This document shows positions 17,983 to 34,711 of a DNA stretch of 34,711 nt, in pieces. Position 1 is the stretch's first letter, and every line of letters starts with the position of its first letter. Source of the DNA: an uncultured Alphaproteobacteria bacterium (GTDB taxonomy: Bacteria; Pseudomonadota; Alphaproteobacteria; Rs-D84). Under the pieces are notes generated by a model. That model saw only the letters and a list, made by a program, of their open reading frames with translations, was not told the DNA's origin and searched no databases. Both the position numbers and the translations under genes were made by a program. The DNA lies in the NCBI GenBank assembly GCA_944392815.1, contig CALXXY010000006.1, positions 1 to 34,711 on the forward strand, read 5' to 3'.

Positions 17983-18120
17983 CGGGCATAAGTGTAGACA
18001 CTAAAATCCAGATATTCAATAAAAACTTGATTTTTCATTTAATTATGTCAAAATAGCCCACGTGTTAAACAAACCGAAATGGCAATGGCATTGCCATCAG
18101 GGAAATGAAAAGAGGTAAAA

Positions 18121-18324: not shown

Positions 18325-18339
18325 TAAAAGGGGGCAATT

Positions 18340-18708
18340 ATGGCAAGGGTTAAACGCGGAACAACCGTTAAACAAAAACACAATAAAATATTGGCACGGG
18401 CCAAAGGTTATCTGGGCCGTCATCATTCGACATATCGTGCCGCCCGTGAAAAAACTGAAAAAGCGGGCCAGTACGCATATCGCGATCGTCGCGTGAAAAA
18501 ACGTGAATTTCGCGGTTTGTGGATTGTTCGTATTAATGCAGCCGTGCGCAGCAATGGTATGACATACAGCCAGTTTATGAATGGCCTGAAAAAGGCCGGC
18601 GTTGCATTGGACAGAAAAGTTCTGGCCGAAATGGCATATGCTGGTGACGCAAATTTCACAAAATTGGTTGAAACAGCAAAACGATTTATCGCCGCAGACG
18701 CTAAATAA
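18340..18708 (+). CDS. rplT: 50S ribosomal protein bL20
   Basis: MARVKRG...AKGY.G...YAYRDRR.KKREFR.LWI.RINAA...LDRKVLA. Confidence 0.98.
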
Positions 18709-18740
18709 GGCCTTGGCGGCAGGTATTTTATTTTGTATTA

Positions 18741-18768
18741 TAAAAGCCGTCACATGACGGCTTTTATG
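18741..18768 (+). terminator. Terminator hairpin between rplT and pheS (possibly conditional)
   Basis: TAAAAGCCGTC-ACAT-GACGGCTTTTA. Confidence 0.75.
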
Positions 18769-18790
18769 TATTAAATAACGGGGTAATGTT

Positions 18791-19738
18791 ATGCAGGAAC
18801 AAATAAAAAACATTAATACACTGGAAGAATTACAATCATTGTACACGGCAACGTTTGGCAAAAACGGTACTATGACGGCCAAACTGAAAAATATGAAAAA
18901 TCTGGACAATGACGCGCGCGCGGAATTAAATCGTGAAAATACAGAACTGCGTGAATTGTTTAAAACGCGCCAGACGGAAATCGAAAACGCGGTCATGATG
19001 GCGGCACTGCAATCACAAAAATTGGACGTGACATTGGCGCCATTGCCTGAAAATCGTGGGACATTGCACCCGTTAACGCAAACATTGGCGGACGTATCGT
19101 CGATTTTGGAATCGTTTGGATATACAATGTGGACCGGACCCGAGGTCGAAGATGATTGGCATAATTTCACGGCATTAAATACCCCGGAATATCACCCTGC
19201 CCGTGATATGCAGGACACGTTTTTCCTGGAAAACGGCAATGTTATGCGTACGCAAACATCTGCGATTCAAATCCGCAGCATGGAAAAAATTGGTGCGCCA
19301 ATAAAAATGTTTGGTATTGGTGCCACATATCGCAAGGAAATGGACGCCACCCACAGCCCCATGTTTCATCAGATAGAGGGCCTGTACATAGATAAAAATA
19401 TAACTATGTCTGATTTGATTGCGGACGTACGTGAATTTTTGAAACGCTTTTTTGAAATGGACGATGTGAAATTGCGTATTCGTCCATCGTATTTCCCATT
19501 CACAGAACCCAGCATAGAAATAGATTTAATGTGGCAAAACAAAAAATGGCTGGAAATTATGGGGGCCGGCATGGTGCACCCGAATGTTTTGCGTAATTGC
19601 AATATTAATCCAGACGAATACCAGGGCTTTGCATTTGGATTTGGTTGGGACAGATTGGCGATGTTAAAATATGGTCTGAACGATATACGTCAATTTTATG
19701 ATGGCGATGTGCGCTGGCTGAAAAATACAGGTTTTTAA
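18791..19738 (+). CDS. pheS: Phenylalanine-tRNA ligase alpha subunit
   Basis: HPARDMQDTF, RTQTS, THSPMFHQIEG, RPSYFPFTEPS, GFAFGFG.DRLAML. Confidence 0.98.
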   Translation: MQEQIKNINTLEELQSLYTATFGKNGTMTAKLKNMKNLDNDARAELNRENTELRELFKTRQTEIENAVMMAALQSQKLDVTLAPLPENRGTLHPLTQTLADVSSILESFGYTMWTGPEVEDDWHNFTALNTPEYHPARDMQDTFFLENGNVMRTQTSAIQIRSMEKIGAPIKMFGIGATYRKEMDATHSPMFHQIEGLYIDKNITMSDLIADVREFLKRFFEMDDVKLRIRPSYFPFTEPSIEIDLMWQNKKWLEIMGAGMVHPNVLRNCNINPDEYQGFAFGFGWDRLAMLKYGLNDIRQFYDGDVRWLKNTGF

Positions 19739-19753
19739 TCGGGGGATAATAAA

Positions 19754-22057
19754 ATGAAATGGACATATGATTGGTTAACTGATTATTTAAAAACAGATTG
19801 CACGGCCGAGCAAATCGCCGATACATTGACACGCACCGGACTCGAGGTCGAAGATTTATCCGCACCAATCGCCCCGATTGCGGCAAAAATTGTTGAATGC
19901 AATCCAATGCCCAACAGCGATCATTTGCATATATTAATGGTTGATGATGGCACCGACACTTTGCGCCAGGTTGTCTGTGGCGCACCAAACGCACGTGTTG
20001 GATTAATATCTGCGTTGGCGTTGCCGGGTTGTGTGATTCAGGGCAATGAAATTCGTGCCGGAAAATTGCGTGGCGTTATGTCAAATGGCATGATGTGCAG
20101 TGCCGCTGAATTGGGTACGGGCGACGACAACAGTGGTATTATCGAATTGGATAAAAATACACCAATCGGCACGCCTGTTGTAAATGTGGAAACAGTATTT
20201 GATGCAGGCATCACCCCAAACCGTCCAGATTATCTGGCTGTGCGCGGCATTGCGCGTGATTTGTCTGCGTGTGGGGCCGGCGAATACATTGTACCGAACG
20301 ATGAATTATTAACACCGGTTAAATCGGCACGTGCTGTGCATATTAAAACGGACAAATGCCCTGTGTATCAGTTCTGTGAAATCCACGGAATTACGGTCAC
20401 GGACAGCAATCCAAAAATAAAATCACGACTGATGGCGATTGGTATTAATCCGAAAAATGCGCCCGTGGACACAACGAATTATATTTGCTATGACATGGCG
20501 CAGCCCATGCATTGCTTTGACGCGGACGAAATAGTTGGCGACATTACTGTACGTATGGCAACGCCCGGGGAACAATTCACAGACCTGTTTGGCGCAACCC
20601 ACGAATTAATTGATACAGATATGGTAATTGCTGACGAACGCGGCATATTGGCGTTGGCTGGTGTTGTTGGCGGTGCACGTGGCATGACAACCGACAAAAC
20701 CAAAAATATTATTTTGGAAAGTGCATATTTTAATCCTGTATCAGTGCGTAAAACATCAAAACGTTTGGGGATATCAACAGATTCATCATATCGTTATGAA
20801 CGCGGTATTGACCCAACAATCACAGGAATCGCACTGTCCCGCGCGGCTGGTATAATTATGGACGTGTGTGGCGGAACGATTGTCGGCACAGGAATCGGTG
20901 GTGAAATTCCATGTGCAACGCATGAAATTGAATATACACCTGATTTATTTGAATGTAAAACAGGCGTTAATATGCCCGCGCAAACCCAGCGTGAAATATT
21001 ACAAAAACTGGGATTTGATATTCGTGAATCAAATCAAGTGTGGTACATCACACCACGGCCTGCGCGCGTAGATGTCGTGATTGCTGAAAATATAGTATCT
21101 GAATTAATTCGTATATATGGATACGATAATATTGCGCGCGTCGCTGTGCATAAACCATCTGACAGTGCCGCACATCATGATTATTATATTAACACCAAAC
21201 GTGAATTGGCCGCCCGTGGTTTGAACGAGGTTAAATCATTCGGATTCGGCAATTCCAAAACAGAATCATTGCTGTCGGACGCGCCAATTGTAAAAATTGC
21301 AAATCCAATTGTGAACGACATGGATACAGCGCGAAATACTCTGTTGGGCAATATGCTGGAATTCGTACGCAATAATGAAAAACGTGGATACCCAGATTTA
21401 AATTTATTTGAATTGGGTACAGTGTTTGATGGTGACGCGCCCGGGGCACAACACACACAAATCTGCATTGTGCGCACGGGTGACACGGCCCCACGTCATT
21501 GGACTGGGCGCAATCGTGCCAGCGATATATATGATGTGAAATCAGATTTAATTGCATTGTTGCACGGTCAAAATTTCACAGTCACAACTGATAATCCGCC
21601 ACGTTGGGCGCACCCATTCAGATACGGTGCCATATACCAGGGCAAAGGTAAAATTGCTGAATTCGGCGAATTATCACCAATTGTTGCACATGCGTTGAAA
21701 ATTAAAACACGCGTAAATGTTGCAATCGTTGAAAATGCAGACAATTTGCCGTCTGCGCGCAAAGTGCACGATCCCATATTATCGGAATTTCAACCGATAA
21801 CACGCGATTTTGCATTTATTGTGGACACAGATACCCCGGCCGAAAAATTAACATCTGTGGCACGCGGCACAGATGCGCGTATATCGGACGTGGTTGTATT
21901 TGATGCGTTTGATTTACAGAACGGTAAAAAATCCATCGCGTTTACAATAACTATTACGCCGATGGAAAAAATGTCTGATTCTGATTTACAGAATTTGCAA
22001 ACAAACGTTATCGCGAACGTAGAAAAAAAATGCAACGCACAAATCCGCGATAAATAG
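19754..22057 (+). CDS. pheT: Phenylalanine-tRNA ligase beta subunit
   Basis: GLEVE, VVCGAPN, TPNRPD, QPMH.FD, RYERG.D, C-terminal FDX-ACB domain (RDFAF, KKSIAF). Confidence 0.97.
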   Translation: MKWTYDWLTDYLKTDCTAEQIADTLTRTGLEVEDLSAPIAPIAAKIVECNPMPNSDHLHILMVDDGTDTLRQVVCGAPNARVGLISALALPGCVIQGNEIRAGKLRGVMSNGMMCSAAELGTGDDNSGIIELDKNTPIGTPVVNVETVFDAGITPNRPDYLAVRGIARDLSACGAGEYIVPNDELLTPVKSARAVHIKTDKCPVYQFCEIHGITVTDSNPKIKSRLMAIGINPKNAPVDTTNYICYDMAQPMHCFDADEIVGDITVRMATPGEQFTDLFGATHELIDTDMVIADERGILALAGVVGGARGMTTDKTKNIILESAYFNPVSVRKTSKRLGISTDSSYRYERGIDPTITGIALSRAAGIIMDVCGGTIVGTGIGGEIPCATHEIEYTPDLFECKTGVNMPAQTQREILQKLGFDIRESNQVWYITPRPARVDVVIAENIVSELIRIYGYDNIARVAVHKPSDSAAHHDYYINTKRELAARGLNEVKSFGFGNSKTESLLSDAPIVKIANPIVNDMDTARNTLLGNMLEFVRNNEKRGYPDLNLFELGTVFDGDAPGAQHTQICIVRTGDTAPRHWTGRNRASDIYDVKSDLIALLHGQNFTVTTDNPPRWAHPFRYGAIYQGKGKIAEFGELSPIVAHALKIKTRVNVAIVENADNLPSARKVHDPILSEFQPITRDFAFIVDTDTPAEKLTSVARGTDARISDVVVFDAFDLQNGKKSIAFTITITPMEKMSDSDLQNLQTNVIANVEKKCNAQIRDK

Positions 22058-22067
22058 GGATTCTTGC

Positions 22068-22114
22068 CTGTTGTATATATGCGATATGCTCGATATATTG
22101 CAAATATACAACAG
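22068..22114. repeat. 20-bp imperfect inverted repeat abutting the RBS of the first OMP gene
   Basis: CTGTTGTATATATGCGATAT-(7 nt)-ATATTGCAAATATACAACAG, 18/20 complementary. Confidence 0.8.
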
Positions 22115-22124
22115 GGGGGAAAAA

Positions 22125-22859
22125 TTGAAAAAATATTTATTTTTAATTCCAGCAATATTTGCATGCGCACCAGCAATCGCAAATGATATGAATCCGTATT
22201 TTAAATTAATGCTGACGGGGTCAGTTGTAAACAACGATTTAAATGTTGTTGGCGATTATTCGTTTGGCGGCGTGACGCATTATATAAACACTATGTCAGA
22301 TGACACGCACAGTGACTTTGCATTTGGTGTAAATACCGGATTTGGTGTAAAAATGGATTTGCCATGCGGCGGCGCATTACGTATGGATTTAACATTTGAT
22401 TGGACGGCCGATGCCACAGACAATAATGATTTTGATTTTGCAGTAAAAACACCATATACACATAATTTCGAATCGACTACATCTATGTACGATATTATGT
22501 TGAATATGTATTACGATTTTACAAATCGCAGTCCATTCACACCATTTATTATGGCGGGCCTGGGTTATGGTCATATGAAAATAGAAACTTTGACCACAGG
22601 CACAATCAAATCACCGGGTGATTTGAATATCGCGACCGACATGAAATCTGATAATTTTATATGGAATATTGGCGCGGGCGTGTCATACAGAATGTCTGAT
22701 AATATATCAATTGATTTGATGTACAGATACACAGATTACCAGGACACAAATAAAAATATGTCGTTAATGGTACTGGGCCTGGGGGCACCAATGATGGTTG
22801 ACGCAGATTTCGACGTCAGCAAACATGAATTTATGCTGGGTATGCGATACGCATTTTAA
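22125..22859 (+). CDS. Outer membrane beta-barrel protein (opacity/porin, OMP_b-brl-like)
   Basis: TTG start after GGGGGA RBS, signal peptide, N.YYDF....FTPFI.AGLGY, WNIGAGVSY, DLMYRY, C-terminal G.RYAF. Confidence 0.88.
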   Translation: MKKYLFLIPAIFACAPAIANDMNPYFKLMLTGSVVNNDLNVVGDYSFGGVTHYINTMSDDTHSDFAFGVNTGFGVKMDLPCGGALRMDLTFDWTADATDNNDFDFAVKTPYTHNFESTTSMYDIMLNMYYDFTNRSPFTPFIMAGLGYGHMKIETLTTGTIKSPGDLNIATDMKSDNFIWNIGAGVSYRMSDNISIDLMYRYTDYQDTNKNMSLMVLGLGAPMMVDADFDVSKHEFMLGMRYAF

Positions 22860-22862
22860 CAT

Positions 22863-22895
22863 AAAAAACACCGGTAAATACCGGTGTTTTTTTTT
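22863..22895. terminator. Bidirectional terminator between the convergent OMP genes
   Basis: AAAAAACACCGGTA-AA-TACCGGTGTTTTTTTTT. Confidence 0.85.
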
Positions 22896-22914
22896 ACCAC
22901 AAGGATACAGGTAT

Positions 22915-23649
22915 TTAAAATGTATACCGTGCACCCAACATGAATTCATGTGTTGCGATATCGAAATCGGCATCGACTGGCAAAATTGCTTTCAACCCAA
23001 TGATGTTTAATTCGCCATTTGCGTCCACTGAACCATAGTTTGTATAACGATACATCAAATCAATGGCCAGGTTTTCTGTTAATTCATACGCAACACCGGC
23101 ACCAACGCCCCATACGAAATTATCGGCATTAATATCTTTGGAAATATCAATGACACCATAGTCTGATATACCCGCAGCAGCGGTACTCAGTGCGATGTGT
23201 CCATACCCCAATCCCGCGGTCAGGAACGGCACAAAACTGGTTCCTGTGTCAAAATCATAATACAGGTTAAACATTACATCATACAGTGATGTTGTTGATT
23301 CGAAATTATGCACATACGGCTTTTTTACTTCAAAATAGAAATCATTGCCGTCTGTTGCATCAGATTTCCAATCGAACGCAAATTCACCACGCAGTGCACC
23401 ATAGCCCAAATCCAGTTTTGCACCAATTGCCGCATTTGCGCCAAATGCAAAATCACTGTGTGTTTCATCGGCCAGGGTGTTCACATAATGCGAAACGCCA
23501 CTGGACGAATAATCGGAAATAACCGTCATATCGTTATTCACCACGGAACCAGTCAGACGCAGTGCAGCATATGGACTGATTTCAAATGCCATCGCAGGCG
23601 CGCTGGCCATTGCAACACCCATACCGATCAAAGCAAATGATTTTTTCAT
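22915..23649 (-). CDS. Outer membrane beta-barrel protein, paralogue of 22125-22859
   Basis: ATG 23649 after AAGGGG RBS, signal peptide (AMA), same barrel motifs, C-terminal GARYTF. Confidence 0.9.
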   Translation of the reverse strand: MKKSFALIGMGVAMASAPAMAFEISPYAALRLTGSVVNNDMTVISDYSSSGVSHYVNTLADETHSDFAFGANAAIGAKLDLGYGALRGEFAFDWKSDATDGNDFYFEVKKPYVHNFESTTSLYDVMFNLYYDFDTGTSFVPFLTAGLGYGHIALSTAAAGISDYGVIDISKDINADNFVWGVGAGVAYELTENLAIDLMYRYTNYGSVDANGELNIIGLKAILPVDADFDIATHEFMLGARYTF

Positions 23650-23676
23650 GTTTAACCCCTTGTTTTGTATTTTGTT

Positions 23677-23855
23677 AAACAAAACCGCACAAATTATTTT
23701 GGGCGGTTGGAGGTTAACGACAATGTTTCGGTATTGTGTTGCTTATTCAGTACACTCACAACCATCCAACCACGTGTTGGAGAATTTCGTCCGCATGTCG
23801 CGAACGCCGAAACCACAGGGTCGTTACACCCCGCCACGGGAACACCCCGTGACGT
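23677..23855 (-). ncRNA. Unclassified structured RNA (sRNA or cis-regulatory leader of the OMP gene)
   Basis: GC-rich intergenic block with at least five helices and G-U pairs favouring the minus strand; upstream TTGTGT-16-TATATT promoter with extended -10; ends in a hairpin plus U tract. Confidence 0.65.
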
Positions 23856-23899
23856 TATTTAATATACCACAAAGGAATATAAACACAACAATAAAAATC

Positions 23900-24550
23900 C
23901 TAGGCATACTTGCACCAGCGTGCAACCGGGCATTCATTGCATTTCGGACGAATTGCCCGACAAATATACCGGCCATGTAAAACCATTACATGATTTACAA
24001 TCGGGTGATATTTTTTTGGAATAATTTTTAATAATTGTTCTTCGACCTTTTCGGGGGTATTCGCGTCTGCGCCAACCCAACCATATCTGTGTGCGTTGCG
24101 AAAAACATGGGTGTCCACCCCTATGTTCGGCGCACCCCACAACACATTCATAATAACATTGGCCGTTTTTTGACCGATGCCGGGCAATTTCATCAATGCG
24201 TCACGATTATGATATTTTTTTGGAAATTTATAATTGTCATCTGCGCCGCCGCCATCATTCATTAATACCGCGGCCAACCCCATAATACTTTTCGCTTTGT
24301 TATTAAAAAAAGACAACACACGAATATGCTGTTTTAATCCATCTTCGCCAATGGCAATCATTTTCGCGGGTGATGGCGCCACACGAAATAATTCCGGTGT
24401 CACTTCGTTAACTTTTTTATCAGTCGCCTGGGCCGACAAAATCACCGCCACCGCAAAAGTAAATTCATTCACGGAATACAGTTCCGACCGTATGTTCATA
24501 TTAATAACAGTCGGAACATATTTAAAATAAATTTCTGGTGTCAGTTCCAT
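23900..24550 (-). CDS. nth: Endonuclease III
   Basis: ILSAQATD, HhH motif LPGIGQKTAN, VDTHV.R, [4Fe-4S] motif C.AIRPKC..CP....C. Confidence 0.95.
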   Translation of the reverse strand: MELTPEIYFKYVPTVINMNIRSELYSVNEFTFAVAVILSAQATDKKVNEVTPELFRVAPSPAKMIAIGEDGLKQHIRVLSFFNNKAKSIMGLAAVLMNDGGGADDNYKFPKKYHNRDALMKLPGIGQKTANVIMNVLWGAPNIGVDTHVFRNAHRYGWVGADANTPEKVEEQLLKIIPKKYHPIVNHVMVLHGRYICRAIRPKCNECPVARWCKYA

Positions 24551-24553
24551 CAA

Positions 24554-24937: not shown

Positions 24938-24951
24938 GATTTTCCCCTTTG

Positions 24952-27900
24952 TTATGCTTTTTCTATTGCGATTGATAAATCGTATCCTTCGATGGTTGTA
25001 TTATACACACCATTTTCGTTTTGCGACATATTTTTTATTAATGCGTCACGCATAATACGGTCGCGATGCTGTTCAATCGCCGCCGCCAATGCAGGCGTGG
25101 CATTATACATCAAATTAATACGGTCAGACACGTCCAGCCCCATTGTTTTGCGTGTGTCCTGGATAAATCGCAATGCGTCATTTGCCAATCCTTCGGCAAC
25201 AAGGTCGGCTGTCACATCTGTGTCAATAACCACAACGGCCGTATTATCCGGTAATGCCGCACCGGTAATACCATCACGCACAGTTAAACGATTTTCAAAT
25301 TCGTCCGCATTCAATGTGTATTCACCAACAACCAGTGTATCGCCCGAAATCGTGTATTCACCGCGTTTTACAGCCGGGATAATTTCACGCAATGCGCCAC
25401 CCAAACGCGCACCAATTTTCGGTGTGATTAAATATATAAATGCGTCGGCAACACTGGATACATCACGCACAAATTCCACAGATTTAACATTTAATTCATC
25501 ACGAATAATGTCCGAGTATTCGGATAAATCGGCCCCCGCCACGGTCATATGTGCCAATGGCAAACGGTTGCGCAATTTGTATTGTTCGCGCAATTGTTTT
25601 CCAACCGACACAACAGATTGCACGCGCCGCATATCAGTCACAATTTGTTTGTCGTAATCCATCGCGGCCGGGAAAGTTTGCAAATGCACACTGTCGCCAC
25701 CCGTTAAATTACGCCAAATGTATTCAGAAATAAACGGTGCAAATGGCGCCAACGCGCGGCACAGCGTGGTCAACACTGAATACAATGTATTAAACGCGTC
25801 CTGGTCTTCGTCCCAAAATCTTTCGCGACTGCGACGAATATACCAGTTATTTAACACGTCCAGGAATCGCACAAATTCTTTGATTGCCACATCGGGCTTG
25901 TATTCGTCCAGTGCCGCACCAACAACTGAAATTAATTCATTTAATTCCGCGATAATATATTTATCCAACGCGTTTTCAGATGCAGCACCACTTTGCGCAA
26001 CGATATTTCCCGCATTTGCATATAACGTAAAGAAATGATACGCATTCCACAGCGGCGTTAATATAGTTTTTGTTGATTCAGCAAAAACTTTGCCGGCCAT
26101 ATCGATACCAACCGGTTCGGCTTTCAAAAAATTCGACCCCAGTATAAATAAACGCACTGCGTCCGCACCGCACTTTTCGATTTGTTCAGACGGGTCTGTA
26201 AAATTCCCCAATGATTTAGATAATTTTTTCTTGTTATCATCTACAACCATTCCATTCACAGACACTGTTTTAAACGCAGGACTGTCGAACAACGCGGTCG
26301 CCAAAACCATCAGCGAATAAAACCAACCACGCGTTTGATCTTGGCCTTCTATAATATAATCTGCCGGGAAAGTTGCATTAAATTTGTCTGCGTTTTCGAA
26401 CGGATAATGCAATGACGCCCACGGCATAGACCCAGATTCCACCCAGCAATCTAAAACATCTGGAATACGTGTCCAGCCGTCTTTTTCCAATTTATCCAAC
26501 GTTGGCCGATGCAGGTCATCGATTTTCACGCCAAAAAAATCCTCGATTTCTTTGACAGAACCAAAAACTTTGTATTCGCCGTCACGCACCCATATTGGCA
26601 GTGGTGTTCCCCAAAAACGATTGCGCGACACAGACCATGGGCGTGCACCCTCTATCCACGTGCGGAAACGTTCGCCGGCCGACGTCCAACGTACTTTTTT
26701 GTTATTTTCAATTAATTTTTCGCGGATTTTTGGCACATCGATATACCAAGAATCGGTCGCGCGATAAATTAATTTTTCTTTACTACGTGGCCCATACGGA
26801 TATGAATGTTTGTGTTGTTCTTTTTTAACCAAATGTCCATTTTCACGCAGGTGCTGAATTATTTTCGGATTAGCCACGAATATATTTTCGCCCGCCCAAT
26901 CACGCACGGTATTATCAAAATTTCCATAATCGTCCACGTTTAAAATCACGGGAAACGCCGCATCAATATTTTTGGCTGCCCAAAAATCATCTTCGCCATA
27001 TGCAGGCGCTATGTGCACAATTCCGGTACCATCGGCGTCCGATACATAATCGGCCGGGATAATTTTGTATAATAAATCAGACACGCCCGCATAGTAATCA
27101 AACAATGGCGTATATTTTTTCCCAACCAAATCAGTGCCCATAATTTCACCGATTTTTTCGGCGTTTTCAAATTGTTTGGCATACGCGGCCAGTCGCGATT
27201 CAGCAATGATATACACCGCGCCATCACTGTCACGCATACGCAGATATTTCATACCTGGATTTACCGCCAGCGCAGAATTCGCCGGCAATGTCCACGGCGT
27301 TGTTGTCCATGCCAACGCGCGTTCGCCTGTTTCCAATTCAAACCAAACAGTAATCGCGTCATCGACAACGTCCATGTATTCACTTGACGCCTCGGAATTG
27401 GATAACACAGTACCCAGTTTCCAATCATATGGATTTACGCGATAATCTTTGTACAATAAACCGCGATTATATAATTCCTTGATCGCCCACATCACGGATT
27501 CCATATAGTTTTTATCCATGGTGCGATATCCGTATCCATCACCAACATCAACCCAGCGGCCAATACGTTCAATAAATTTTTCCCATTCGTGCGTATATAT
27601 TAAAATATCAGACCGGCACATATCGCAAAATGCGTCAATACCCTGCTGTGCAACGATATCTTTGGCCTGTTTGCCCTGTTTTTTTTCAACAGAATTTTCG
27701 GCGGGCAAACCATGACAGTCCCAACCCAATTCGCGCACAACATGACGCCCGCGCATAGTTTGATAACGTCCAACCATATCTTTGACGGCGGACACACCCA
27801 AATGCCCCCAGTGCGGCAAACCATTTCCAAACGGTGGCCCGTCATAGAACGAAAACGGGTGTCCTAATTTAGTTTGATTTAACGATTTATGAAAAGTATC

Positions 27901-27978
27901 ATCATTGCGCCAAAACGTCAGGACTTCGTGTTCCAACGCTGGGAAATCTGCCTTGGGTTCTGTTTTGCGATATGCCAT
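24952..27978 (-). CDS. ileS: Isoleucine-tRNA ligase, type 2
   Basis: DGPPF.NGLPHWGH, GWDCHGLP, WTTTPWTLP, SRNRFWGTP, EGQDQTRGWFY, KLSKS; long type-2 C-terminus without a Zn finger. Start reassigned to ATG 27978 (GGAG RBS). Confidence 0.97.
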   Translation of the reverse strand: MAYRKTEPKADFPALEHEVLTFWRNDDTFHKSLNQTKLGHPFSFYDGPPFGNGLPHWGHLGVSAVKDMVGRYQTMRGRHVVRELGWDCHGLPAENSVEKKQGKQAKDIVAQQGIDAFCDMCRSDILIYTHEWEKFIERIGRWVDVGDGYGYRTMDKNYMESVMWAIKELYNRGLLYKDYRVNPYDWKLGTVLSNSEASSEYMDVVDDAITVWFELETGERALAWTTTPWTLPANSALAVNPGMKYLRMRDSDGAVYIIAESRLAAYAKQFENAEKIGEIMGTDLVGKKYTPLFDYYAGVSDLLYKIIPADYVSDADGTGIVHIAPAYGEDDFWAAKNIDAAFPVILNVDDYGNFDNTVRDWAGENIFVANPKIIQHLRENGHLVKKEQHKHSYPYGPRSKEKLIYRATDSWYIDVPKIREKLIENNKKVRWTSAGERFRTWIEGARPWSVSRNRFWGTPLPIWVRDGEYKVFGSVKEIEDFFGVKIDDLHRPTLDKLEKDGWTRIPDVLDCWVESGSMPWASLHYPFENADKFNATFPADYIIEGQDQTRGWFYSLMVLATALFDSPAFKTVSVNGMVVDDNKKKLSKSLGNFTDPSEQIEKCGADAVRLFILGSNFLKAEPVGIDMAGKVFAESTKTILTPLWNAYHFFTLYANAGNIVAQSGAASENALDKYIIAELNELISVVGAALDEYKPDVAIKEFVRFLDVLNNWYIRRSRERFWDEDQDAFNTLYSVLTTLCRALAPFAPFISEYIWRNLTGGDSVHLQTFPAAMDYDKQIVTDMRRVQSVVSVGKQLREQYKLRNRLPLAHMTVAGADLSEYSDIIRDELNVKSVEFVRDVSSVADAFIYLITPKIGARLGGALREIIPAVKRGEYTISGDTLVVGEYTLNADEFENRLTVRDGITGAALPDNTAVVVIDTDVTADLVAEGLANDALRFIQDTRKTMGLDVSDRINLMYNATPALAAAIEQHRDRIMRDALIKNMSQNENGVYNTTIEGYDLSIAIEKA

Positions 27979-28002
27979 GTTTGTGCACTCCATTGCTATT
28001 AT

Positions 28003-28025
28003 AAAAAACGGGCGCCCATGCGCCC
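28003..28025 (-). terminator. Attenuator terminator upstream of ileS
   Basis: GGGCGC-ATGG-GCGCCC-GTTTTTT on the minus strand, ending about 25 nt before the ileS start. Confidence 0.8.
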
Positions 28026-28054
28026 CAGCCACGTGCAGAAGCGCATGTGCCAGT

Positions 28055-28087
28055 TTATCTTATAATAATTATAACTTTTTTGTTCAT
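28055..28087 (-). CDS. ileS leader peptide MNKKVIIIIR
   Basis: ATG AAC AAA AAA GTT ATA ATT ATT ATA AGA TAA: four tandem Ile codons immediately upstream of an antiterminator/terminator and ileS. Confidence 0.8.
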   Translation of the reverse strand: MNKKVIIIIR

Positions 28088-28098
28088 CTGTTTATTTC

Positions 28099-28174
28099 TG
28101 GTGCCGGTTATAGGACTTGAACCTACGACCCCCTCATTACGAATGAGATGCTCTACCAGCTGAGCTAAACCGGC
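28099..28174 (-). tRNA. tRNA-Thr(CGT)
   Basis: GCCGGTTTAGCTCAGCTGGTAGAGCATCTCATTCGTAATGAGGGGGTCGTAGGTTCAAGTCCTATAACCGGCACCA: full 76-nt cloverleaf with encoded CCA. Confidence 0.97.
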
Positions 28175-28288
28175 GCACGCGCATATATTAATATATGTTT
28201 TTGCGGATTTCCAGTACTAAATTGATACGAAATCAGTCCTGTTAAATTTTATCGCAATGCGCGGTAAAATATGCGCGTGGTTATATAT

Positions 28289-28690: not shown

Positions 28691-28716
28691 AACACCGGTA
28701 TTTGCCGGTGTTTTTT
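28687..28716. terminator. Bidirectional terminator (yetF remnant / mnmG)
   Basis: AAAAAACACCGGTA-TT-TGCCGGTGTTTTTT. Confidence 0.85.
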
Positions 28717-28721
28717 ATACT

Positions 28722-30371
28722 TTAATTACCGCATTTTATTTTGCGTAAAACAACCATTATGCCGGCCGGCGTCATACCCGGAATGCGCCCCAGGTCGGCA
28801 ATATTTTCCGGCCGCGTGGCGGTTAATTTTTCCACCAGTTCATTGGTCAGTCCCGGCAAACCCCGGTATTCAAAATGCGTCGGGATTTTTAATTCAGCGT
28901 CACGCCGATATGCCGCAATTTCCCGTTCGTTGCGCTGGATATACCCGGCATAGAATTTATCATTTTCGCGAATTTTATCTGCACGATATGCATATTTTTC
29001 GTCACGCGCAGTTGCACTGATTAACCCGCAATCCACCGCCATATCACCCAACCGCGCAATCGCATTATCCGCGCGCAGGCGTAATCGATATTCCGCGCGT
29101 GATGTAAACATGCGATACGGTTCGTCCACCCCCAGCGTTGTAATATCATCAATTAAAACACCAATCATGGCGTTTGTTCTGTCCAGTTGCAGGGGCGCGC
29201 ACCCCAACGCGCGCGCCGCGGCATTTGCGCCCGCAACAATGCCCTGGGCGGCGGCTTCTTCGTACCCAGATGTGCCGTTAATTTGCCCGGCAAAAAATAA
29301 TCCTGGAATATCTTTGGCCTCCAGTGTATCACGCAACGCGCGTGCATCAATTGCATCATATTCAATCGCATATCCATATCGCACAACACGCGCGTTTTCC
29401 AATCCTGGGATAGTGCGAATCCATGCGTCCTGGATATCTGCGCTGAAACTGGTGGAAATGCCGTTGGGATAAATTAAATCGCTGTGCAACCCCTCGTGTT
29501 CCAGAAAAACATGGTGCGACGTGTGTTCAGGAAAACGCATAACCTTGTCTTCTATGCTGGGGCAATACCGCGGGCCAGTACCACGAATATCCCCATTATA
29601 CATTGGTGCGGCCGATATATTTTCACGTATTAAATCATGTGTTTTTTGCGTCGTGTGCGTTATATAACATACCGCGTCATAGTTATTATCTGGATTTGGT
29701 GCACTGAACCAATCGTGGGGCGCGTCGCCCGGTTGCACTTCGCACACAGAATAATCTATGGACGATTTATCAATACGTGCCGGCGTACCCGTTTTCAGGC
29801 GCATGATTTTAAATCCAGCCGCCACCAACGCCCCAGATATATTCGTATCCGCCGCCTGGTATTCCCCATTATCCATAATGCGCCCAGACGGAATTTTTTC
29901 TGCACCACGCGTCACCAAACCGTGCAAAAATGTTCCCGTGGTCAATACTATTGCGCGCGCGGCATATTTGCTGTTGATGCACATTTGCGCGACGTCCAGC
30001 GATTTTACCATTTCAAATTGCACGGTTAAATTTGGATAGTCATGCAAAATTTTGACAATTTCATTATGGTATAATTCGCGGTCAATTTGTGCGCGCAGTG
30101 CCTGGGTTGCCGCACCATGCGACGCGTTTAATGTACGGAAATGAATCCCGGCGGCGTCCGCCGCGCGACCCATAATTCCGCCCATGGCGTCGATTTCGGC
30201 AACCATTTGTGATTTGCCCGGCCCCCCAATACTTGGGTTGCATGACATCGCCCCCAGGTCAGATTCGCGTTGGGTTATCAATAATGTTCGCGCGCCACGC
30301 CGCGCAGATGCACATGCGGCCTCGACCCCGGCGTGTCCGCCACCAATAACGATTACGTCAAAATTTTTCAT
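28722..30371 (-). CDS. mnmG: tRNA uridine-5-carboxymethylaminomethyl(34) synthesis enzyme MnmG (GidA)
   Basis: [69 protein letters not shown]. Confidence 0.97.
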
Positions 30372-30374
30372 TTA

Positions 30375-31103
30375 TTAAAAACGTCCCATACCGCCGTTAA
30401 TGTGTAATACCTGGCCATTGATATACGACGCTTCGTCGGACGCCAAAAATACACATGCCGCCGCAATATCGGCCGGTTCGCCAAAGCGTCCCGCTGGAAT
30501 CTGGGCCAGATATGTTTGTTTTAAATCGTCAGACAAAACATCAGTCATCGGTGTTTTAATAAATCCAGGTGCAATGCAGTTTGCTGTGATACCGCGGGAT
30601 CCAACCTCGGCTGCGATGGATTTTGTCATTGCAATCATACCGCCCTTGGACGCGGCATAGTTTGCCTGACCCGGTCCACCAATTGCGCCGATAATGGACG
30701 CCATGTTAATAATACGCCCGCTGCGTTGTTTCATCATGGGCATAATAACCGCGCGACACATTTTAAAACAAGACCGCAGATTTGTGTTAATAACATCATC
30801 AAACTGGTCATCGGTCATACGCATTAACAAAGTATCTTTGGTAATACCGGCATTGTTTACAACGATGTCAATTTTGCCGGCTGTATCAATTGTGGATTGT
30901 ACTAAATCAATGGCACCACCGTCAGACGCCAAATCAACAGGAATTTTGATATAAGAATTATCAAATTGCGCGTCCAGTTTATCCATACTGCGCCCAGACA
31001 CAACAACCGTTGCTCCGGCCTGTTTCATTTGCTTTGCAATTGCGCCACCGATACCACCGGTCGCGCCAGTAATTAATGCAACTTTGCCTGTTAAATCAAA
31101 CAT
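30375..31103 (-). CDS. fabG: 3-oxoacyl-ACP reductase
   Basis: TGATGGIG, NNAGITKD, YAASK; adjacent to fabD. Confidence 0.96.
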   Translation of the reverse strand: MFDLTGKVALITGATGGIGGAIAKQMKQAGATVVVSGRSMDKLDAQFDNSYIKIPVDLASDGGAIDLVQSTIDTAGKIDIVVNNAGITKDTLLMRMTDDQFDDVINTNLRSCFKMCRAVIMPMMKQRSGRIINMASIIGAIGGPGQANYAASKGGMIAMTKSIAAEVGSRGITANCIAPGFIKTPMTDVLSDDLKQTYLAQIPAGRFGEPADIAAACVFLASDEASYINGQVLHINGGMGRF

Positions 31104-31104
31104 T

Positions 31105-31980
31105 TTATATCTCCAATTTTTTTGCGTTCATATCCGGACAAATACGTGGGGTCAACCCAGTCAATACCGCGCCGGGGCCAACCTCGATTGTTTCAGTAAT
31201 TCCCAATTCGTGCATTTTTAACACAGATTCGCGCCAATGCACACCATGTGTGACCTGGTATATTAATGCTTCTTTGATTTCGGCTGGGGCAGTCATGGGC
31301 GCGGCCGTTTTGTTGGAAATCAAAATCGCATTCGGTGTTTTGATTTCGATTTTTTCCAACGCTTCGCGCATGTCAATCGCCGCGGGCGCCTGAATCCGGC
31401 AATGCACGGGCACAGACAACGCCAACGGCATAGCGCGTTTTGCGCCCGCCGCTTTGGCCAGTTCCAATGTTTTTTCGACGATATCGCGTGCACCGGAAAC
31501 AACAACCTGACCCGGGGAATTATCATTTGCCACATCGCAATCAGTTTGTGCGCAAATTTCACGTACCGTGTCAATATCCAAACCCAAAATCACGGCGGTC
31601 AATCCAGCCCCAACCGGCACAGCGCGCTGCATAGCGTCCCCGCGCAGACGCAGCAATCGGGCCGTATCTGCAATTGATAACGCGCCGGCCGCACACAGTG
31701 CTGTATATTCACCCAAACTGTGCCCCGCGACGTATTTCGTCAATTCAATTCCCGACGCGCGCAACATGGCAATCGACACAGCCATAATTGCGGGCTGAAC
31801 ATTTGTGGTTAATGTTAATTCGTCCATCGGACCGTTAAAAATTATATCCGACAATTTTTGATTTAACGCATCGTCAACCTCGTCAAACACGGCGCGTGCG
31901 TCTGGATTTGTATCATACAATTCGCGTCCCATACCCACGGTTTGCGATCCCTGCCCCGGGAAAACCAGTATAGATGACAT
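31105..31980 (-). CDS. fabD: Malonyl-CoA-ACP transacylase
   Basis: FPGQGSQ, QPAI, GHSLGEY, EVGPG.VL.GL. Confidence 0.96.
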   Translation of the reverse strand: MSSILVFPGQGSQTVGMGRELYDTNPDARAVFDEVDDALNQKLSDIIFNGPMDELTLTTNVQPAIMAVSIAMLRASGIELTKYVAGHSLGEYTALCAAGALSIADTARLLRLRGDAMQRAVPVGAGLTAVILGLDIDTVREICAQTDCDVANDNSPGQVVVSGARDIVEKTLELAKAAGAKRAMPLALSVPVHCRIQAPAAIDMREALEKIEIKTPNAILISNKTAAPMTAPAEIKEALIYQVTHGVHWRESVLKMHELGITETIEVGPGAVLTGLTPRICPDMNAKKLEI

Positions 31981-32006
31981 ACATACTCCTTTTTATAATC
32001 GGGATA

Positions 32007-32035
32007 ATTATAGAATTGAAAGCCCTAATTCGCAA
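32007..32035 (-). promoter_or_regulatory. sigma70-type promoter for fabD-fabG-mnmG
   Basis: TTGCGA-17 bp-TATAAT on the minus strand, followed by AAGGAG RBS. Confidence 0.65.
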
Positions 32036-32038
32036 ATA

Positions 32039-32608
32039 TTATCTGATGGGTACGATTTTTTTAATATTTGCGGATTTTTCCGTGTCGCGACGCATAGAAA
32101 ATTCGCACCCACAGTATTTTTGCCTGTAAAAATCAGACGCACGATTTATCTCGCACCGCAACCCCTCGTCCCATTTAATGGGAATGTATTGGTCAGACAA
32201 AGCGGAATACCCTGCCCTGTCTACTTGGGATTGGTCTTTGTGGCGCGACACACCAAACACAGATGTCACAGCATCATACCCATGTTCAGCAGCCCACCGG
32301 CGGGCATATTCGAAACGAAATTTAAAACACGCGCTGCACCGCGGACCGCGTTCGGGGGCTTCCTCCATTCCGCGCACAGCGTCGCGCCATGCCGCATGGT
32401 CATATTCGCCAATCGCGTATTTCGCGCCCAATTGTTCACAGTACCGTATTTGTTCCGCCAATCGTTTATCATATTCTGCGGCCGGAAAAATATTAGGGTT
32501 AAAAAACAACACAATAAAATCATCAACCCCGGGTATTTGCCCGTCGGCCAGTTGTTTTATCGCGCCCGCGCTGCACGGCGCACAGCAAGACATTAAAACC
32601 AGTTTCAT
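32039..32608 (-). CDS. queH: Epoxyqueuosine reductase QueH (DUF208)
   Basis: CCAPC, FFNPNI.P..EY..R, E.G.RC..CF..R, S..K, YRQ.YCGC.FS. Confidence 0.92.
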   Translation of the reverse strand: MKLVLMSCCAPCSAGAIKQLADGQIPGVDDFIVLFFNPNIFPAAEYDKRLAEQIRYCEQLGAKYAIGEYDHAAWRDAVRGMEEAPERGPRCSACFKFRFEYARRWAAEHGYDAVTSVFGVSRHKDQSQVDRAGYSALSDQYIPIKWDEGLRCEINRASDFYRQKYCGCEFSMRRDTEKSANIKKIVPIR

Positions 32609-34611
32609 TTGTTATTATAAACAGTTCCAATTTGCGCGTCGTCTGGCAATTCGATAATGTTTTTATCATCGTCGCCCACGCCAATTTCCACGCCACTGCA
32701 CATCATGCCATACGATTCCACCCCCGCCACAGTGCGTTGGGAAATCGGTTTTTTTTGCCCGGGCAACACGGTGCCCACAGGTGCCAAAACACCAATCATA
32801 CCATCGTGCACATTTGGCGCACCACACACAATTTGCAAATCATGATGTTCGCCATCATCAACGGTCAGAATATGCAAATCATCGCGCGTCGGGTGATTTT
32901 TTACAGCCACAATTTTTGCGATAATTGGCTTTGGCGTGTCATCAGATTTTGGTGCATACTGCGCCGTCAGTTTCGCAACAGTTTCATCATCTATGCGCGA
33001 AAACAGATTTTCTGGCACAACAAATTTTGCGCCGTCCACGACGCGTGGCGCATATTCGTCTGGCCACGACAAATCCAAATCAGAATCCACGAACACAGCG
33101 CGCATTTTTTCGGCCGCCCCCGGTATAAACGGCGCAGACACACGCGCATACAAATCAATTAATTGAAAACATTGATTTAACACCGCGCCGGCCGCGTCCA
33201 TGTCACCATTTTTCACCAATGTCCACGGTTCACGCACAGTCATATATTCGTTGCCAATCGCATACAGCCCGCGCAGCGCGACGATTGCCGCGCGAAATTC
33301 GCACGCGTCCAGCGCGTCTGTTAATTCACGAATTTTTTCGTTTATTTGTTTTTCTAACGCCGCATCACGCACACCCGCGGCCGGCACAGTATCGCCAAAG
33401 TTTTTGTTTGTTAATTTGCAAACGCGTGATACAAAATTCCCCAACATACCGTTCAGGTCTTTGTTCACAACATCTGCAAAACGTTCAAACGTAAAATTAG
33501 TATCGTCTGTTTCTGGGGCCGACGCCATTAATGCATAACGCCACGCGTCCGCCGGCGCGATGGAAATGGCATCGGATAAAAACACGCCACGATGTTGCGA
33601 TTTAGAAAACTTGCCACCTTCGAAATTCAGGAAATTCATGGATTTCAGCATATCAACAGTTTTCCAACCGTCATTCACGGCCAACTGCTGTTCCGGGAAA
33701 AATACAGCGTGGAATTTCACATTGTCTTTGCCCATGAATTGCGCATAATAACAATCATCATTTTTCCACCAAGACGCCCAATCATCAGTTGCTGCCTGGG
33801 AAATAGAAACGTATCCCCACGGCGCGTCAAACCAAACATAGAACACTTTGTTTTCATATCCAGGTTTGTTAACCGGAATTCCCCACGGTAAATCGCGTGT
33901 GATTGATGTATCGCGCAATTCATCATTTGCCCAGCCCTGGGCAATGGCGGCGGCGGTGTGTGACCATTTTGGTGCGTGTGATTTTAACCATTCGCGCCAG
34001 CTGTCCTGGACACGTGACGCCAAAAAGAATAAATTTTTTGTTGGCCGCATTTCGATATTTGTACTGCCCGATATAACACTGCGTGGATTGATTAATTCAG
34101 ACGCGTCATACGTTGCACTGCATTTGTCACATTGGTCACCGCGGGCCCGGTCATATCCGCATTTGGGACAAGTGCCCTCGATTTGTCGGTCGGCCAAAAA
34201 CATATTGTCATCGACTGAAAACGGTTGCAGTGTTTCGCGTTCGTCGATTAATCCCAATGTGTCCAGACGTGTAAATAAATCCTGAACCAATTTTTCCTGT
34301 AATTGGGTATGAGTGCGTCCATATAAATCAAAAGACAATTCGAAATCATTCACCGCCCGCAAATGTTTTTCATAATATTTATTATTGTATTCCAACACGG
34401 GCATATTTTCTTTCATCGCACCAACAACAGCGGTCGCACCATGTTCGTCCGCGCCACAGATGTATAATACATCGCGCCCACGTGCACGGCAAAAACGTGC
34501 ATATATATCAGACGGCAACCAACACCCCACCAAATGTCCCAGGTGTAAATCACCATTCACATATGGCAAAGCAGACGTAATTAAATATTTTTGTTTTTTG
34601 TCGGCAGTCAT
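32605..34611 (-). CDS. metG: Methionine-tRNA ligase with C-terminal OB-fold tRNA-binding domain
   Basis: LITSALPYVNG..HLGH, GADEHG, CPKC...GDQCDKC knuckle, YVWFDAP, GKDN, KFSKS. Confidence 0.97.
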   Translation of the reverse strand: MTADKKQKYLITSALPYVNGDLHLGHLVGCWLPSDIYARFCRARGRDVLYICGADEHGATAVVGAMKENMPVLEYNNKYYEKHLRAVNDFELSFDLYGRTHTQLQEKLVQDLFTRLDTLGLIDERETLQPFSVDDNMFLADRQIEGTCPKCGYDRARGDQCDKCSATYDASELINPRSVISGSTNIEMRPTKNLFFLASRVQDSWREWLKSHAPKWSHTAAAIAQGWANDELRDTSITRDLPWGIPVNKPGYENKVFYVWFDAPWGYVSISQAATDDWASWWKNDDCYYAQFMGKDNVKFHAVFFPEQQLAVNDGWKTVDMLKSMNFLNFEGGKFSKSQHRGVFLSDAISIAPADAWRYALMASAPETDDTNFTFERFADVVNKDLNGMLGNFVSRVCKLTNKNFGDTVPAAGVRDAALEKQINEKIRELTDALDACEFRAAIVALRGLYAIGNEYMTVREPWTLVKNGDMDAAGAVLNQCFQLIDLYARVSAPFIPGAAEKMRAVFVDSDLDLSWPDEYAPRVVDGAKFVVPENLFSRIDDETVAKLTAQYAPKSDDTPKPIIAKIVAVKNHPTRDDLHILTVDDGEHHDLQIVCGAPNVHDGMIGVLAPVGTVLPGQKKPISQRTVAGVESYGMMCSGVEIGVGDDDKNIIELPDDAQIGTVYNNK

Positions 34612-34626
34612 TTTATACCCTTTGTT

Positions 34627-34657
34627 AAAAATATATGGGCGCCCAACGGGGCGCCCA
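34627..34657 (-). terminator. Attenuator-like terminator upstream of metG
   Basis: TGGGCGCCC-CGTT-GGGCGCCCA-TATATTTTT on the minus strand, ending 15 nt before the metG start. Confidence 0.7.
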
Positions 34658-34686
34658 GGAATCCCGTCAGAATGATTTTATCAAGA

Positions 34687-34707
34687 TTAATTGTACATTC
34701 GTATCAT
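34687..34707 (-). CDS. Putative metG leader peptide MIRMYN (may extend beyond the window)
   Basis: ATG ATA CGA ATG TAC AAT TAA; the stop lies 29 nt before the terminator hairpin, the same spacing as in the ileS leader. Confidence 0.55.
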   Translation of the reverse strand: MIRMYN

Positions 34708-34711
34708 TTTT

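Follow-up and report, generated by a model that had tools for sequence, protein, structure and literature searches.

To our knowledge, a good understanding of how aminoacyl-tRNA synthetase genes are controlled exists only for the T-box leaders of Gram-positive bacteria and for a few genes of Escherichia coli, and the way in which synthetase levels are matched to tRNA charging in Alphaproteobacteria, especially in genome-reduced symbionts, is largely open. The classical attenuator of a synthetase gene is that of E. coli pheST, which lies between rplT and pheS and encodes the PheM leader peptide (pheM); a short open reading frame (ORF) rich in cognate codons precedes an antiterminator/terminator pair and the synthetase genes follow. 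In the T-box regulon of Firmicutes and Actinobacteria, many synthetase genes each answer to the charging of their own tRNA through an antiterminator/terminator choice that is set by binding of uncharged tRNA. Here we describe the leaders of the synthetase genes ileS and metG in a stretch of 34,711 nucleotides (nt), referred to as the window, which is the whole of contig C6 (CALXXY010000006.1) of a 927 kb assembly with 18 contigs and 96.8% completeness. We consider it probable that these two leaders are the window members of a lineage-wide set of seven ribosome-sensing leader-peptide attenuators, which also includes those of lysS, thrS, serS, hisS and cysS and leaves out pheST, the third synthetase locus of the window. 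The leaders look like devices that tune each synthetase to the charging of its own tRNA.

The genome belongs to Candidatus Enterousia, in the order Rs-D84 of the Alphaproteobacteria. The genus is placed within this GTDB order and is described with genomes of less than 1 Mbp that are without amino acid biosynthesis pathways (PMC12306168), so synthetases are among the few amino-acid-specific genes that are left for regulation in Rs-D84. Close relatives, retrieved via the threonyl-tRNA synthetase (ThrRS), are named Candidatus Enterousia or are uncultured Alphaproteobacteria or Rickettsiales metagenome-assembled genomes (MAGs) from animal and human guts. The order is described as uncultured, and every record retrieved is a MAG.

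The leaders share the layout of E. coli pheST, but their ORFs are shorter (5-20 codons) and mostly leaderless, and the device is found on ileS, metG, lysS, thrS, serS, hisS and cysS, whereas pheST itself has no leader ORF here (0 of 22 loci). With the T-box regulon they have in common that many synthetase genes would each respond to their own tRNA; they differ in the sensor, which would be the ribosome on cognate codons. A search of 17 synthetase loci (E <= 0.1) and of the window (gathering score) found no T-box or other Rfam family, tRNA aside. It is an attractive thought that these leaders form an order-wide counterpart of the T-box regulon, in which at least seven synthetase genes of genome-reduced, amino-acid-auxotrophic Alphaproteobacteria, in Rs-D84 and some neighbouring groups, are gated by mostly leaderless cognate mini-ORFs in two architectures, one of them a non-textbook re-coded cassette; this wider claim is put forward tentatively and at a little less than even confidence.

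The trp and his attenuators, as described in the literature (PMC10117765, PMC6614838, PMC1183508), rest on the same ribosome-mediated choice between antiterminator and terminator, and the trpL ORF of the trp attenuator in Sinorhizobium meliloti, also an alphaproteobacterium, is reported to be leaderless (PMC10117765). The Enterousia leaders differ from these in their targets, which are synthetases in an organism reported to be without biosynthetic operons (PMC12306168), and in their elements, as the three-element layout of ileS and lysS has no well-supported 1:2 hairpin and leaders of the thrS type have no canonical terminator. Small ORFs directly upstream of alphaproteobacterial synthetase genes are described in a ribosome profiling study of Caulobacter crescentus, with a translated small coding sequence before trpS and an "ileS leader CDS" (CCNA_03934), both termed leader peptides; they are merely noted there, one as a negative control, and the passages concerned hold nothing on codon content, structure, regulon or distribution (PMC4117421). 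In Bacillus, a His leader peptide has been predicted before hisS paralogues and hisZ (PMC2965389), which likewise extends leader-peptide attenuation of synthetase genes beyond the E. coli paradigm, but within one gene family in Firmicutes. Our literature search, with Lopatovskaya, Seliverstov and Lyubetsky 2010 (Mol Biol 44:128) standing outside the comparison, found no thrS, cysS, lysS or metG leader peptide, no multi-gene synthetase regulon of this type and no regulatory analysis of Enterousia. The sensor principle is thus known; what we have not found in print is a seven-gene synthetase regulon in a genome-reduced lineage with very small, mostly leaderless ORFs and a re-codable hairpin cassette.

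The specificity of these leaders is evident at the level of the genome. The 19 synthetase genes of the assembly were found by Pfam search and named by NCBIfam, and five of their upstream regions (ileS, thrS, cysS, hisS and serS) contain an intergenic ORF with an ATG start and at least three cognate codons in seven. When the amino acid labels were permuted among the 19 genes, neither the sum nor the count observed was reached in any of 100,000 trials, and each of the five scores is reached for the same residue by only 0.1-0.9% of 826 called genes. The cognate residue is the top-scoring one in intergenic ATG ORFs before thrS and hisS and is tied with Ile for cysS and with Phe for serS; in a wider scan of leader ORFs, Ile is top-scoring before ileS. 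For metG (background 10.5%) and lysS (background 6.8%) the enrichment in this single genome is weak, and the case for both comes from conservation. Twelve of the 19 upstream regions score zero, namely those of valS, leuS, gltX, argS, tyrS, trpS, two proS genes, glyS, aspS, alaS and pheS, and the device is therefore not on synthetases generally.

Conservation of the leaders was evaluated across the genus with strict motifs. The motif is present at 24 of 24 ileS loci, 23 of 24 thrS loci (the miss, L020, is at a contig end), 19 of 21 cysS loci and 19 of 22 hisS loci; the count is 8 of 24 for serS, which abuts the upstream gene in several relatives, and 10 of 23 for metG in addition to this genome. 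Leaders are also kept in other families of the order. A preliminary description of the window, made from its sequence, had suggested that attenuators of this kind might control the synthetases of the lineage generally and had named a scan upstream of every synthetase gene as the check. That scan bears out cognate-codon enrichment, and the lineage-wide proposal holds for ileS and, as a system, through thrS, cysS, hisS, serS and lysS; metG is a plausible member, pheST is not a member, and the word "generally" has to be dropped. The three leaders then described fare differently in relatives, with ileS conserved throughout (24 of 24), metG patchy (11 of 25) and pheST without any leader ORF (0 of 22).

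The ileS locus provides the most complete leader in the window. The gene is encoded on the reverse strand at 24952..27978 (NCBIfam TIGR00392, E = 3.5e-229), with GGAG at 27991-27988 ahead of the start codon ATG 27978, and homologues across the genus all align from residue 1 at this ATG. A GTG at 28032 was rejected as the start codon; it is located upstream of the hairpin. The leader ORF (28055..28087, reverse strand) consists of 10 codons, ATG AAC AAA AAA GTT ATA ATT ATT ATA AGA, followed by TAA (MNKKVIIIIR), with the Ile codons ATA ATT ATT ATA at 28072-28061. The pattern M..IIII[KRE] followed by a stop precedes ileS at all 24 genus loci. Among 80 ileS loci retrieved from metagenomes, 2 had too little upstream DNA and were left out, and the leader ORF is present in all 78 that have at least 130 nt upstream, with an in-frame ATG in 76. 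Residues 2-5 vary freely, and the part that is kept consists of 4-5 Ile codons, mostly ATA ATT ATT ATT, and a last codon for Lys, Arg or Glu.

A tRNA-Thr(CGT) gene (28099..28174, reverse strand; ARAGORN, and Rfam RF00005 with 69.2 bits) is directly upstream of this leader, and the promoter is probably supplied here by the tRNA-Thr unit, with a TAATAT box at 28190-28185 recognized by eye. A tRNA is upstream of the leader in some relatives too; in others, a -10-like box instead precedes the leader ATG by 6-8 nt. An RNA-library contig of a relative that is 90-95% identical (X16 record 6) bridges tRNA-Thr, the leader and the 5' end of ileS, and another contig from a relative's RNA library (X19 record 18) covers the leader and the ileS start. 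The bridging contig is compatible with co-transcription of tRNA-Thr, leader and ileS; an assembled contig cannot show a transcript and may reflect DNA carry-over.

Behind the ileS leader ORF, two helices compete for the same strand. The terminator-like hairpin (28003..28025, reverse strand), taken from a consensus terminator scan, consists of GGGCGC-AUGG-GCGCCC (28025-28010) and six U residues (28008-28003), located 31 nt upstream of ATG 27978 with the T run GTTTTTT in the DNA. In the antiterminator helix (28017..28047, reverse strand), the 5' strand at 28047-28035 (CAUGCGCUUC..GC) pairs with 28029-28017, which includes the 5' arm of the terminator. The RNAalifold consensus for ileS is the helix UGCGCUUUGGC : GCUGGGGCGCA; as GCUGGGGCGCA includes the terminator 5' arm, the consensus helix is the antiterminator. 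When the terminator 3' arm is left off, the antiterminator is the minimum-energy fold in 24 of 24 genus sequences (-12 to -19 kcal/mol). Among 69 distinct sequences, 96.4% of the cells of this helix pair and three pairs are changed on both sides; such values arise 2-11 times in 500 shuffles, and pairing in slid registers is 32-58%. The GC hairpin abutting a T run folds in 66 of the 69, and the other 3 were cut too far upstream. In two relatives (L069 and L358), C-G to U-A changes in the shared strand are compensated both in the terminator 3' arm and in the antiterminator 5' strand. A further hairpin just after the stop codon (hairpin A), which would be the classical 1:2 helix, was rejected for lack of specific support, as it pairs at 88.6% and slid registers reach 82-84%.

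All three synthetase loci of the window have a GC hairpin and a T run shortly before the start codon, and such sites are common in this genome. The interval 17500-34711 contains 37 terminator-like sites against 25.7 +/- 4.7 in shuffles, and a separate hairpin scan found 236 hairpin-plus-T sites genome-wide within 70 nt of a long ORF. Hairpins alone therefore say little and the upstream content is decisive. The hairpins might simply be terminators of the upstream unit (tRNA-Thr, rplT or, for metG, a gene outside view), and the short ORFs might have arisen by chance in AT-rich spacers. The frequency of hairpins in a compact genome is what such ordinary punctuation would give, and residue runs occur in 123 intergenic short ORFs, most of them before unrelated genes. 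Runs that were set aside as background are IIII before an rmlC-type epimerase gene and before an 1811-aa ORF, HHH before a methyladenine glycosylase gene, SSSSS before a DNA methylase gene, FFFF before an HC2-like gene and PPPP before an unnamed gene. Punctuation is also the best reading of pheS, and it agrees with those relatives in which metG has no mini-ORF and is preceded by a tRNA and a terminator. As an account of the whole set, however, it conflicts with the cognate specificity measured by permutation, with the conservation of leaders while their flanks diverge (24 of 24 and 78 of 78 for ileS and 80 of 80 for thrS) and with the triple-compensated changes that tie antiterminator to terminator. 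In most genus members, moreover, there is no tRNA upstream of the ileS leader but a -10-like box of its own, so that the hairpin is not simply a tRNA terminator. We regard punctuation as a very improbable explanation of the set, and for ileS, thrS, cysS, hisS and lysS it is already contradicted by conservation and specificity.

The lysS leader, located behind tRNA-Gly in this genome, has the same architecture as that of ileS. At 28 of 28 genus loci an ORF of 7-16 codons with 1-4 Lys codons follows the pattern M-K-x-x-[IL]-K-[KR] (MKxxIKK). Its stop codon is located 2-8 nt before the strand GUGCG(A)CC, for which pairing with GG(A/G)CGCAC is predicted in all 28; this second strand is the 5' arm of a strong terminator that is located, as judged by eye, about 20-40 nt before the start codon. 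The antiterminator strands in this analysis are GUGCGACC with GGACGCAC. The terminator was recognized by eye in all 28 loci and computed in 13, of which 9 fold to the terminator and 4 keep the antiterminator, and the energies of the two are comparable where both were folded.

The metG gene (32605..34611, reverse strand; NCBIfam TIGR00398, 451 bits) is close to the end of the contig, and only 100 nt of its upstream sequence are visible. As the contig ends at 34711, the promoter of the leader is outside view. The mini-ORF at 34687..34707 (reverse strand) comprises six codons, ATG ATA CGA ATG TAC AAT, followed by TAA (MIRMYN), and its cognate content is one internal Met codon in addition to the initiator. 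In relatives the core ATG CGA ATG nnn nnn TAA (MRMxx) is conserved, and in many cases a TATAAT-like box is found 6-7 nt ahead of it. The mini-ORF is followed by an AU-rich spacer, by ACGGG and then by a terminator with CCCGU in its upper stem and loop. In the combined antiterminator and terminator element (34627..34667, reverse strand), ACGGG at 34667-34663 pairs with CCCGU at 34650-34646, and the terminator stem UGGGCGCCC-CGUU-GGGCGCCCA at 34657-34636 leads into a U-rich tail at 34635-34627; at the DNA level the consensus scan gives TGGGCGCCC-CGTT-GGGCGCCCA and TATATTTTT, 24 nt before the ATG. The mini-ORF motif is present at 11 of 25 loci examined, and the ACGGG...CCCGT pair co-occurs in 10 of these 11. 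Among ten folded sequences, ACGGG:CCCGU forms ahead of the terminator 3' arm in nine, the exception being L083, which is without ACGGG. In the remaining relatives, the place of the mini-ORF is taken either by a tRNA with a terminator or by a simple promoter-like site. The metG leader is a real, conserved element with a patchy distribution across the genus, and its membership in the attenuator set is plausible. In this genome GGGCGCC is common to the ileS and metG stems, and the metG stem in relatives reads GGACGCC/GGCGTCC. Because the stem differs in relatives and the antiterminator strands of the two leaders are unrelated, common descent of both is unproven.

The leaders of thrS, serS, hisS and cysS have a second architecture. 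Their ORFs terminate 60-86 nt before the gene, and directly next to the cognate run there is a short GC hairpin, into which the last part of the ORF extends. In this genome (G000), the thrS leader encodes MKKYCVFFVTTTTTPTGV (C2:107321-107182, L008; pattern ...TTTTTPxGV and stop), the cysS leader, behind tRNA-Ser, encodes MTIRIINFYCCCR (C3:21218-21344, L003; ...FYCCCR and stop), the hisS leader encodes MICNKTILFAHYHAHRAGCL (C3:97757-97618, L014; ...HHAxxG... and stop) and the serS leader encodes MMIKFISLYVSQSPFGVRF (C2:135534-135653, L009; ...SSPLGE and stop). The thrS hairpin, ACCCC-nnn-GGGGU, encodes a conserved Pro-x-Gly, and the hisS hairpin is CGCCC-nnnn-GGGCG; a second hairpin at thrS, GCGN...NCGC, covaries as judged by eye. 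The first hairpin is followed by a U-rich stretch and then by a conserved sigma-70-like promoter motif, which reads TTGCGN-17-TATAAT at thrS, TGnTATAAT at hisS and TTGCAT-17-TAAAAT at cysS. These four genes may combine a regulated upstream promoter with a basal downstream promoter. Among loci from named Enterousia and alphaproteobacterial MAGs, 80 of 80 thrS leaders have at least 3 Thr codons in 7 and 76 of 80 have at least 5, and these codons differ at third positions and remain Thr. In most loci of the set a -10-like box precedes the leader ATG by 6-8 nt, and the mRNAs are thus expected to be leaderless.

The whole layout is common to thrS and serS, and order family f6 employs it for ileS, with a leader (L317, L321) that reads ...IIxRIP... 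and continues into a CCCC-loop-GGGG hairpin. The combination of a cognate run with a CCCC/GGGG hairpin looks like a portable cassette that can be re-coded for Thr, Ser or Ile; its sharing fits duplication or re-coding without proving either. Leaders of thrS were found in order families f2, f5 and f6 and were not found in families f3 and f4. The thrS leader of family f2 (L325, L326, L329) has the end ...TTP, and its stop codon, which follows Pro, is part of the hairpin loop. Since the peptide stops at Pro and the hairpin is still kept, it is the RNA hairpin that is conserved and not the peptide tail. Leaders of the same type precede thrS in two genomes of other alphaproteobacterial families (1.4-1.7 Mb), with MFVYSLITTTFTTTTP in L331 (G374) and MIVFIAKFITTTTTTP in L332 (G118), each followed by a stop. 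They are located 110-130 nt before a thrS gene of about 60% identity, and the device is thus not confined to the order Rs-D84. A class-wide pattern scan is non-specific when used alone, as 5 of the 7 genomes outside the order that gave a match had it inside long GC-rich ORFs and a reversed control pattern likewise matched many genomes.

The short ORFs could instead encode functional small peptides, for example membrane peptides, that merely adjoin synthetase genes. The N-terminal half of the thrS leader is hydrophobic and its ...FFTTTTTTPLGV end is conserved, conservation of the cysS leader MTIRFINFYCCR extends over its entire length, and peTrpL is described as a leader peptide that acts in trans (PMC7298713). 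The ileS leader, however, keeps only its Ile run and last residue, and the Pro-x-Gly of thrS varies exactly at the hairpin loop and gives way to the truncated peptide of family f2. A function of the peptide itself is also hard to reconcile with a cassette whose run is of Thr, Ser or Ile to match the enzyme downstream, and we give this explanation hardly any weight.

The arrangement at ileS, metG and lysS suggests how attenuators of the first architecture would work. Here an ORF and an antiterminator are followed by a canonical terminator 16-35 nt before the start codon, so near that there is no room for another promoter, and classical ribosome-mediated attenuation is the most likely mode of control. 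We infer that the ORF is translated and that transcription ends at the hairpin. The mini-ORF would be transcribed leaderless from a promoter with its -10 box 6-8 nt before the ATG, or just behind a tRNA gene, and would present the ribosome with codons for the amino acid that is charged by the downstream enzyme. The 3' strand of the antiterminator serves as the 5' arm of the GC-rich intrinsic terminator. When the cognate aminoacyl-tRNA is scarce, the ribosome would be held on the cognate codons, and the antiterminator, formed before the terminator 3' arm exists, would persist and allow RNA polymerase to enter the synthetase gene. With ample charging, the ribosome would reach the stop codon and cover the antiterminator 5' strand, either wholly, as in lysS (2-8 nt), or at its base, as in ileS (11 nt). 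The terminator would then fold and transcription would stop. In ileS, the terminating ribosome would free the base of the helix, which is possibly a toehold for the terminator.

The fit of this mechanism differs among the leaders. The lysS geometry, with its stop codon immediately before the antiterminator strand, fits the classical sign well, and a number of observations on the other leaders weigh against the mechanism. At full length, the terminator state of ileS is more stable under every ribosome mask applied, so that a switch has to be kinetic. At the stop codon of the ileS leader, a ribosome would cover about 2 nt of the 11-nt antiterminator strand, which is a marginal fit, and a ribosome on the Ile codons reaches neither helix. 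Hairpin A, if real, would favour the opposite sign, with stalling leading to termination. Covariation is thin, as counts in the 24-sequence ileS set are inseparable from those of shuffles, and the near-invariance of the stems keeps it modest. The antiterminator strand of metG is about 20 nt past the stop, beyond the reach of a ribosome on an ORF of 5-6 codons, and no consistent anti-antiterminator or helix linking the mini-ORF to the antiterminator was predicted. Cognate codons are few in the Met leader (1 internal Met) and in the Lys leader (1-4 Lys), and AAA triplets occur often in AT-rich spacers. For thrS, serS, hisS and cysS no canonical terminator was found, only a short hairpin with an imperfect U-rich tail. 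Finally, about half of the genus or more is without the metG leader, and the same is true of the serS leader.

Several of these points bear on the possibility that charging is sensed but the output is a different one, such as Rho termination through occupancy of a C-rich leader, interplay with a second promoter, an effect on mRNA stability or translation, or a feed-forward sign, in which read-through would rise with ample charging. The leaders of the thrS type lend themselves to this view, with a 4-5 bp CCCC/GGGG hairpin in or abutting the ORF, the imperfect tail and the conserved promoter motif that follows, and for this second architecture the output could be a minimal terminator, Rho or an interplay with the downstream promoter. 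The stop codon within the hairpin loop of the f2 thrS leader supports a non-classical output, a rho gene is present in the genome, and the footprint geometry of ileS and cysS fits antitermination by a ribosome at the stop codon at least as well as the classical sign. A different output sits poorly with ileS, metG and lysS, where a competing helix accompanies a textbook GC stem and T run located 16-35 nt from the start codon, and with the lysS geometry, which matches the classical sign. It can also be reasoned, independently of the data, that feed-forward control of an essential synthetase would be unstable. For the set as a whole we consider a non-classical output unlikely, and classical attenuation is our preferred reading for ileS, metG and lysS.

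If the attenuator set is confirmed, one lineage would have solved the matching of synthetases to charging seven times with the smallest possible sensor, a leaderless ORF of 5-20 codons. The leaders would provide a natural series for the effects of codon choice, ORF length and helix placement on attenuator sensitivity, and a probable case of a regulatory cassette that was re-coded between amino acids. The Met leader (M-R-M) would represent an unusual form of sensing through initiator and elongator Met codons. The presence of short cognate-run ORFs before synthetase genes would give an annotation rule for thousands of gut MAGs, and the leaders would offer compact amino-acid-specific sensors for synthetic biology.

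The pheST locus differs from the two other synthetase loci of the window. The genes pheS (18791-19738) and pheT (19754-22057) are encoded on the forward strand, as named by NCBIfam, with rpmI and rplT upstream. The rplT-pheS spacer (18709..18790, forward strand; 82 nt) contains a promoter-like TTGGCG-17-TATTAT at 18713-18741 and the hairpin GCCGTC-ACAT-GACGGC with four T residues at 18746-18765. The hairpin is located 25 nt before the ATG and was detected in a separate scan (18746-18761), being unlisted by the consensus scan. As judged by eye, a promoter-like site (TTGnCG-17-TAnTAT) followed at once by a hairpin is kept at the 22 genus loci with a full spacer of 77-91 nt, and the stem has compensatory changes across the genus (GACCGTC/GACGGTC, GTCCGTC/GACGGAC); at one further locus at a contig end (L199), only the -10-like box and the hairpin are visible. 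A Phe-rich short ORF between rplT and pheS was found at none of the 22 loci, and the TTT triplets of the spacer lie within its T-rich promoter-like part with no start codon and no ORF over them. An overlapping antiterminator was not found. A transcription start 6-8 nt after the -10 box falls inside the 5' arm of the hairpin, so that the hairpin would end the rpmI-rplT transcript and pheST transcripts would be without a complete terminator. The simplest reading is that pheST is outside the attenuator set and that its hairpin is the rplT terminator, overlapped and then escaped by the promoter-like site of pheST. The preliminary description had given all three loci a terminator, an overlapping antiterminator and upstream cognate codons. 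The hairpin and T run are real at each of the three; the antiterminator is retained for ileS and metG and not for pheS, and the cognate codons are clear for ileS, weak for metG with its one internal ATG, and not borne out for pheS, where the TTT triplets are in no ORF. The shared stem sequence noted there for two leaders holds for ileS and metG in this genome and not in relatives, and the proposed spread by leader duplication is unproven for this pair.

Other synthetase loci have features of note outside the leader set. Upstream of aspS (G000 C2:180050-180300, L015) there is a GC-rich and apparently structured stretch of about 250 nt, GGGGGCGGGGACGATGATG...GGTGGCACCGCGCAG..., which has neither a cognate-run ORF nor, at E <= 0.1, a match in Rfam. 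The genome also encodes three genes of the prolyl-tRNA synthetase (ProRS) type, which is unusual for 0.93 Mb (L013, C1:207467-209664; L010, C1:211479-212756; L011, C1:221019-222455). The set comprises a type II-like gene, a type I gene and a weaker ProRS-like gene, which is directly followed by a gene resembling asparagine synthetase A or asparaginyl-tRNA synthetase (AsnRS). No Pro-rich intergenic leader was found at the type I or the type II-like gene, and the ProRS-like paralogue was left out of the scoring.

Among the neighbouring genes in the window, two convergent outer-membrane beta-barrel genes (22071-22859, forward strand, and 22915-23682, reverse strand) have a weak likeness to the rickettsial adhesin Adr, with 59.6 and 37.9 bits against model NF052636, both under the cut-off. 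A strong bidirectional terminator-like palindrome (ATAAAAAACACCGG...CCGGTGTTTTTTAT) is located at 28685-28718, just past the stop codon of mnmG and between this reverse-strand gene and the tRNA-Thr/ileS unit. The mnmG gene (28722-30371, reverse strand) encodes a MnmG protein of 549 aa that matches positions 1-470 of the 616 in its family model. Similarly, the alanyl-tRNA synthetase (AlaRS; G000 C1:17072-19129) has 685 aa and matches model positions 1-694 of 847, and the valyl-tRNA synthetase (ValRS; G000 C5:10633-13044) has 803 aa and matches positions 3-744 of 860. The shortened MnmG, AlaRS and ValRS proteins are in line with genome reduction.

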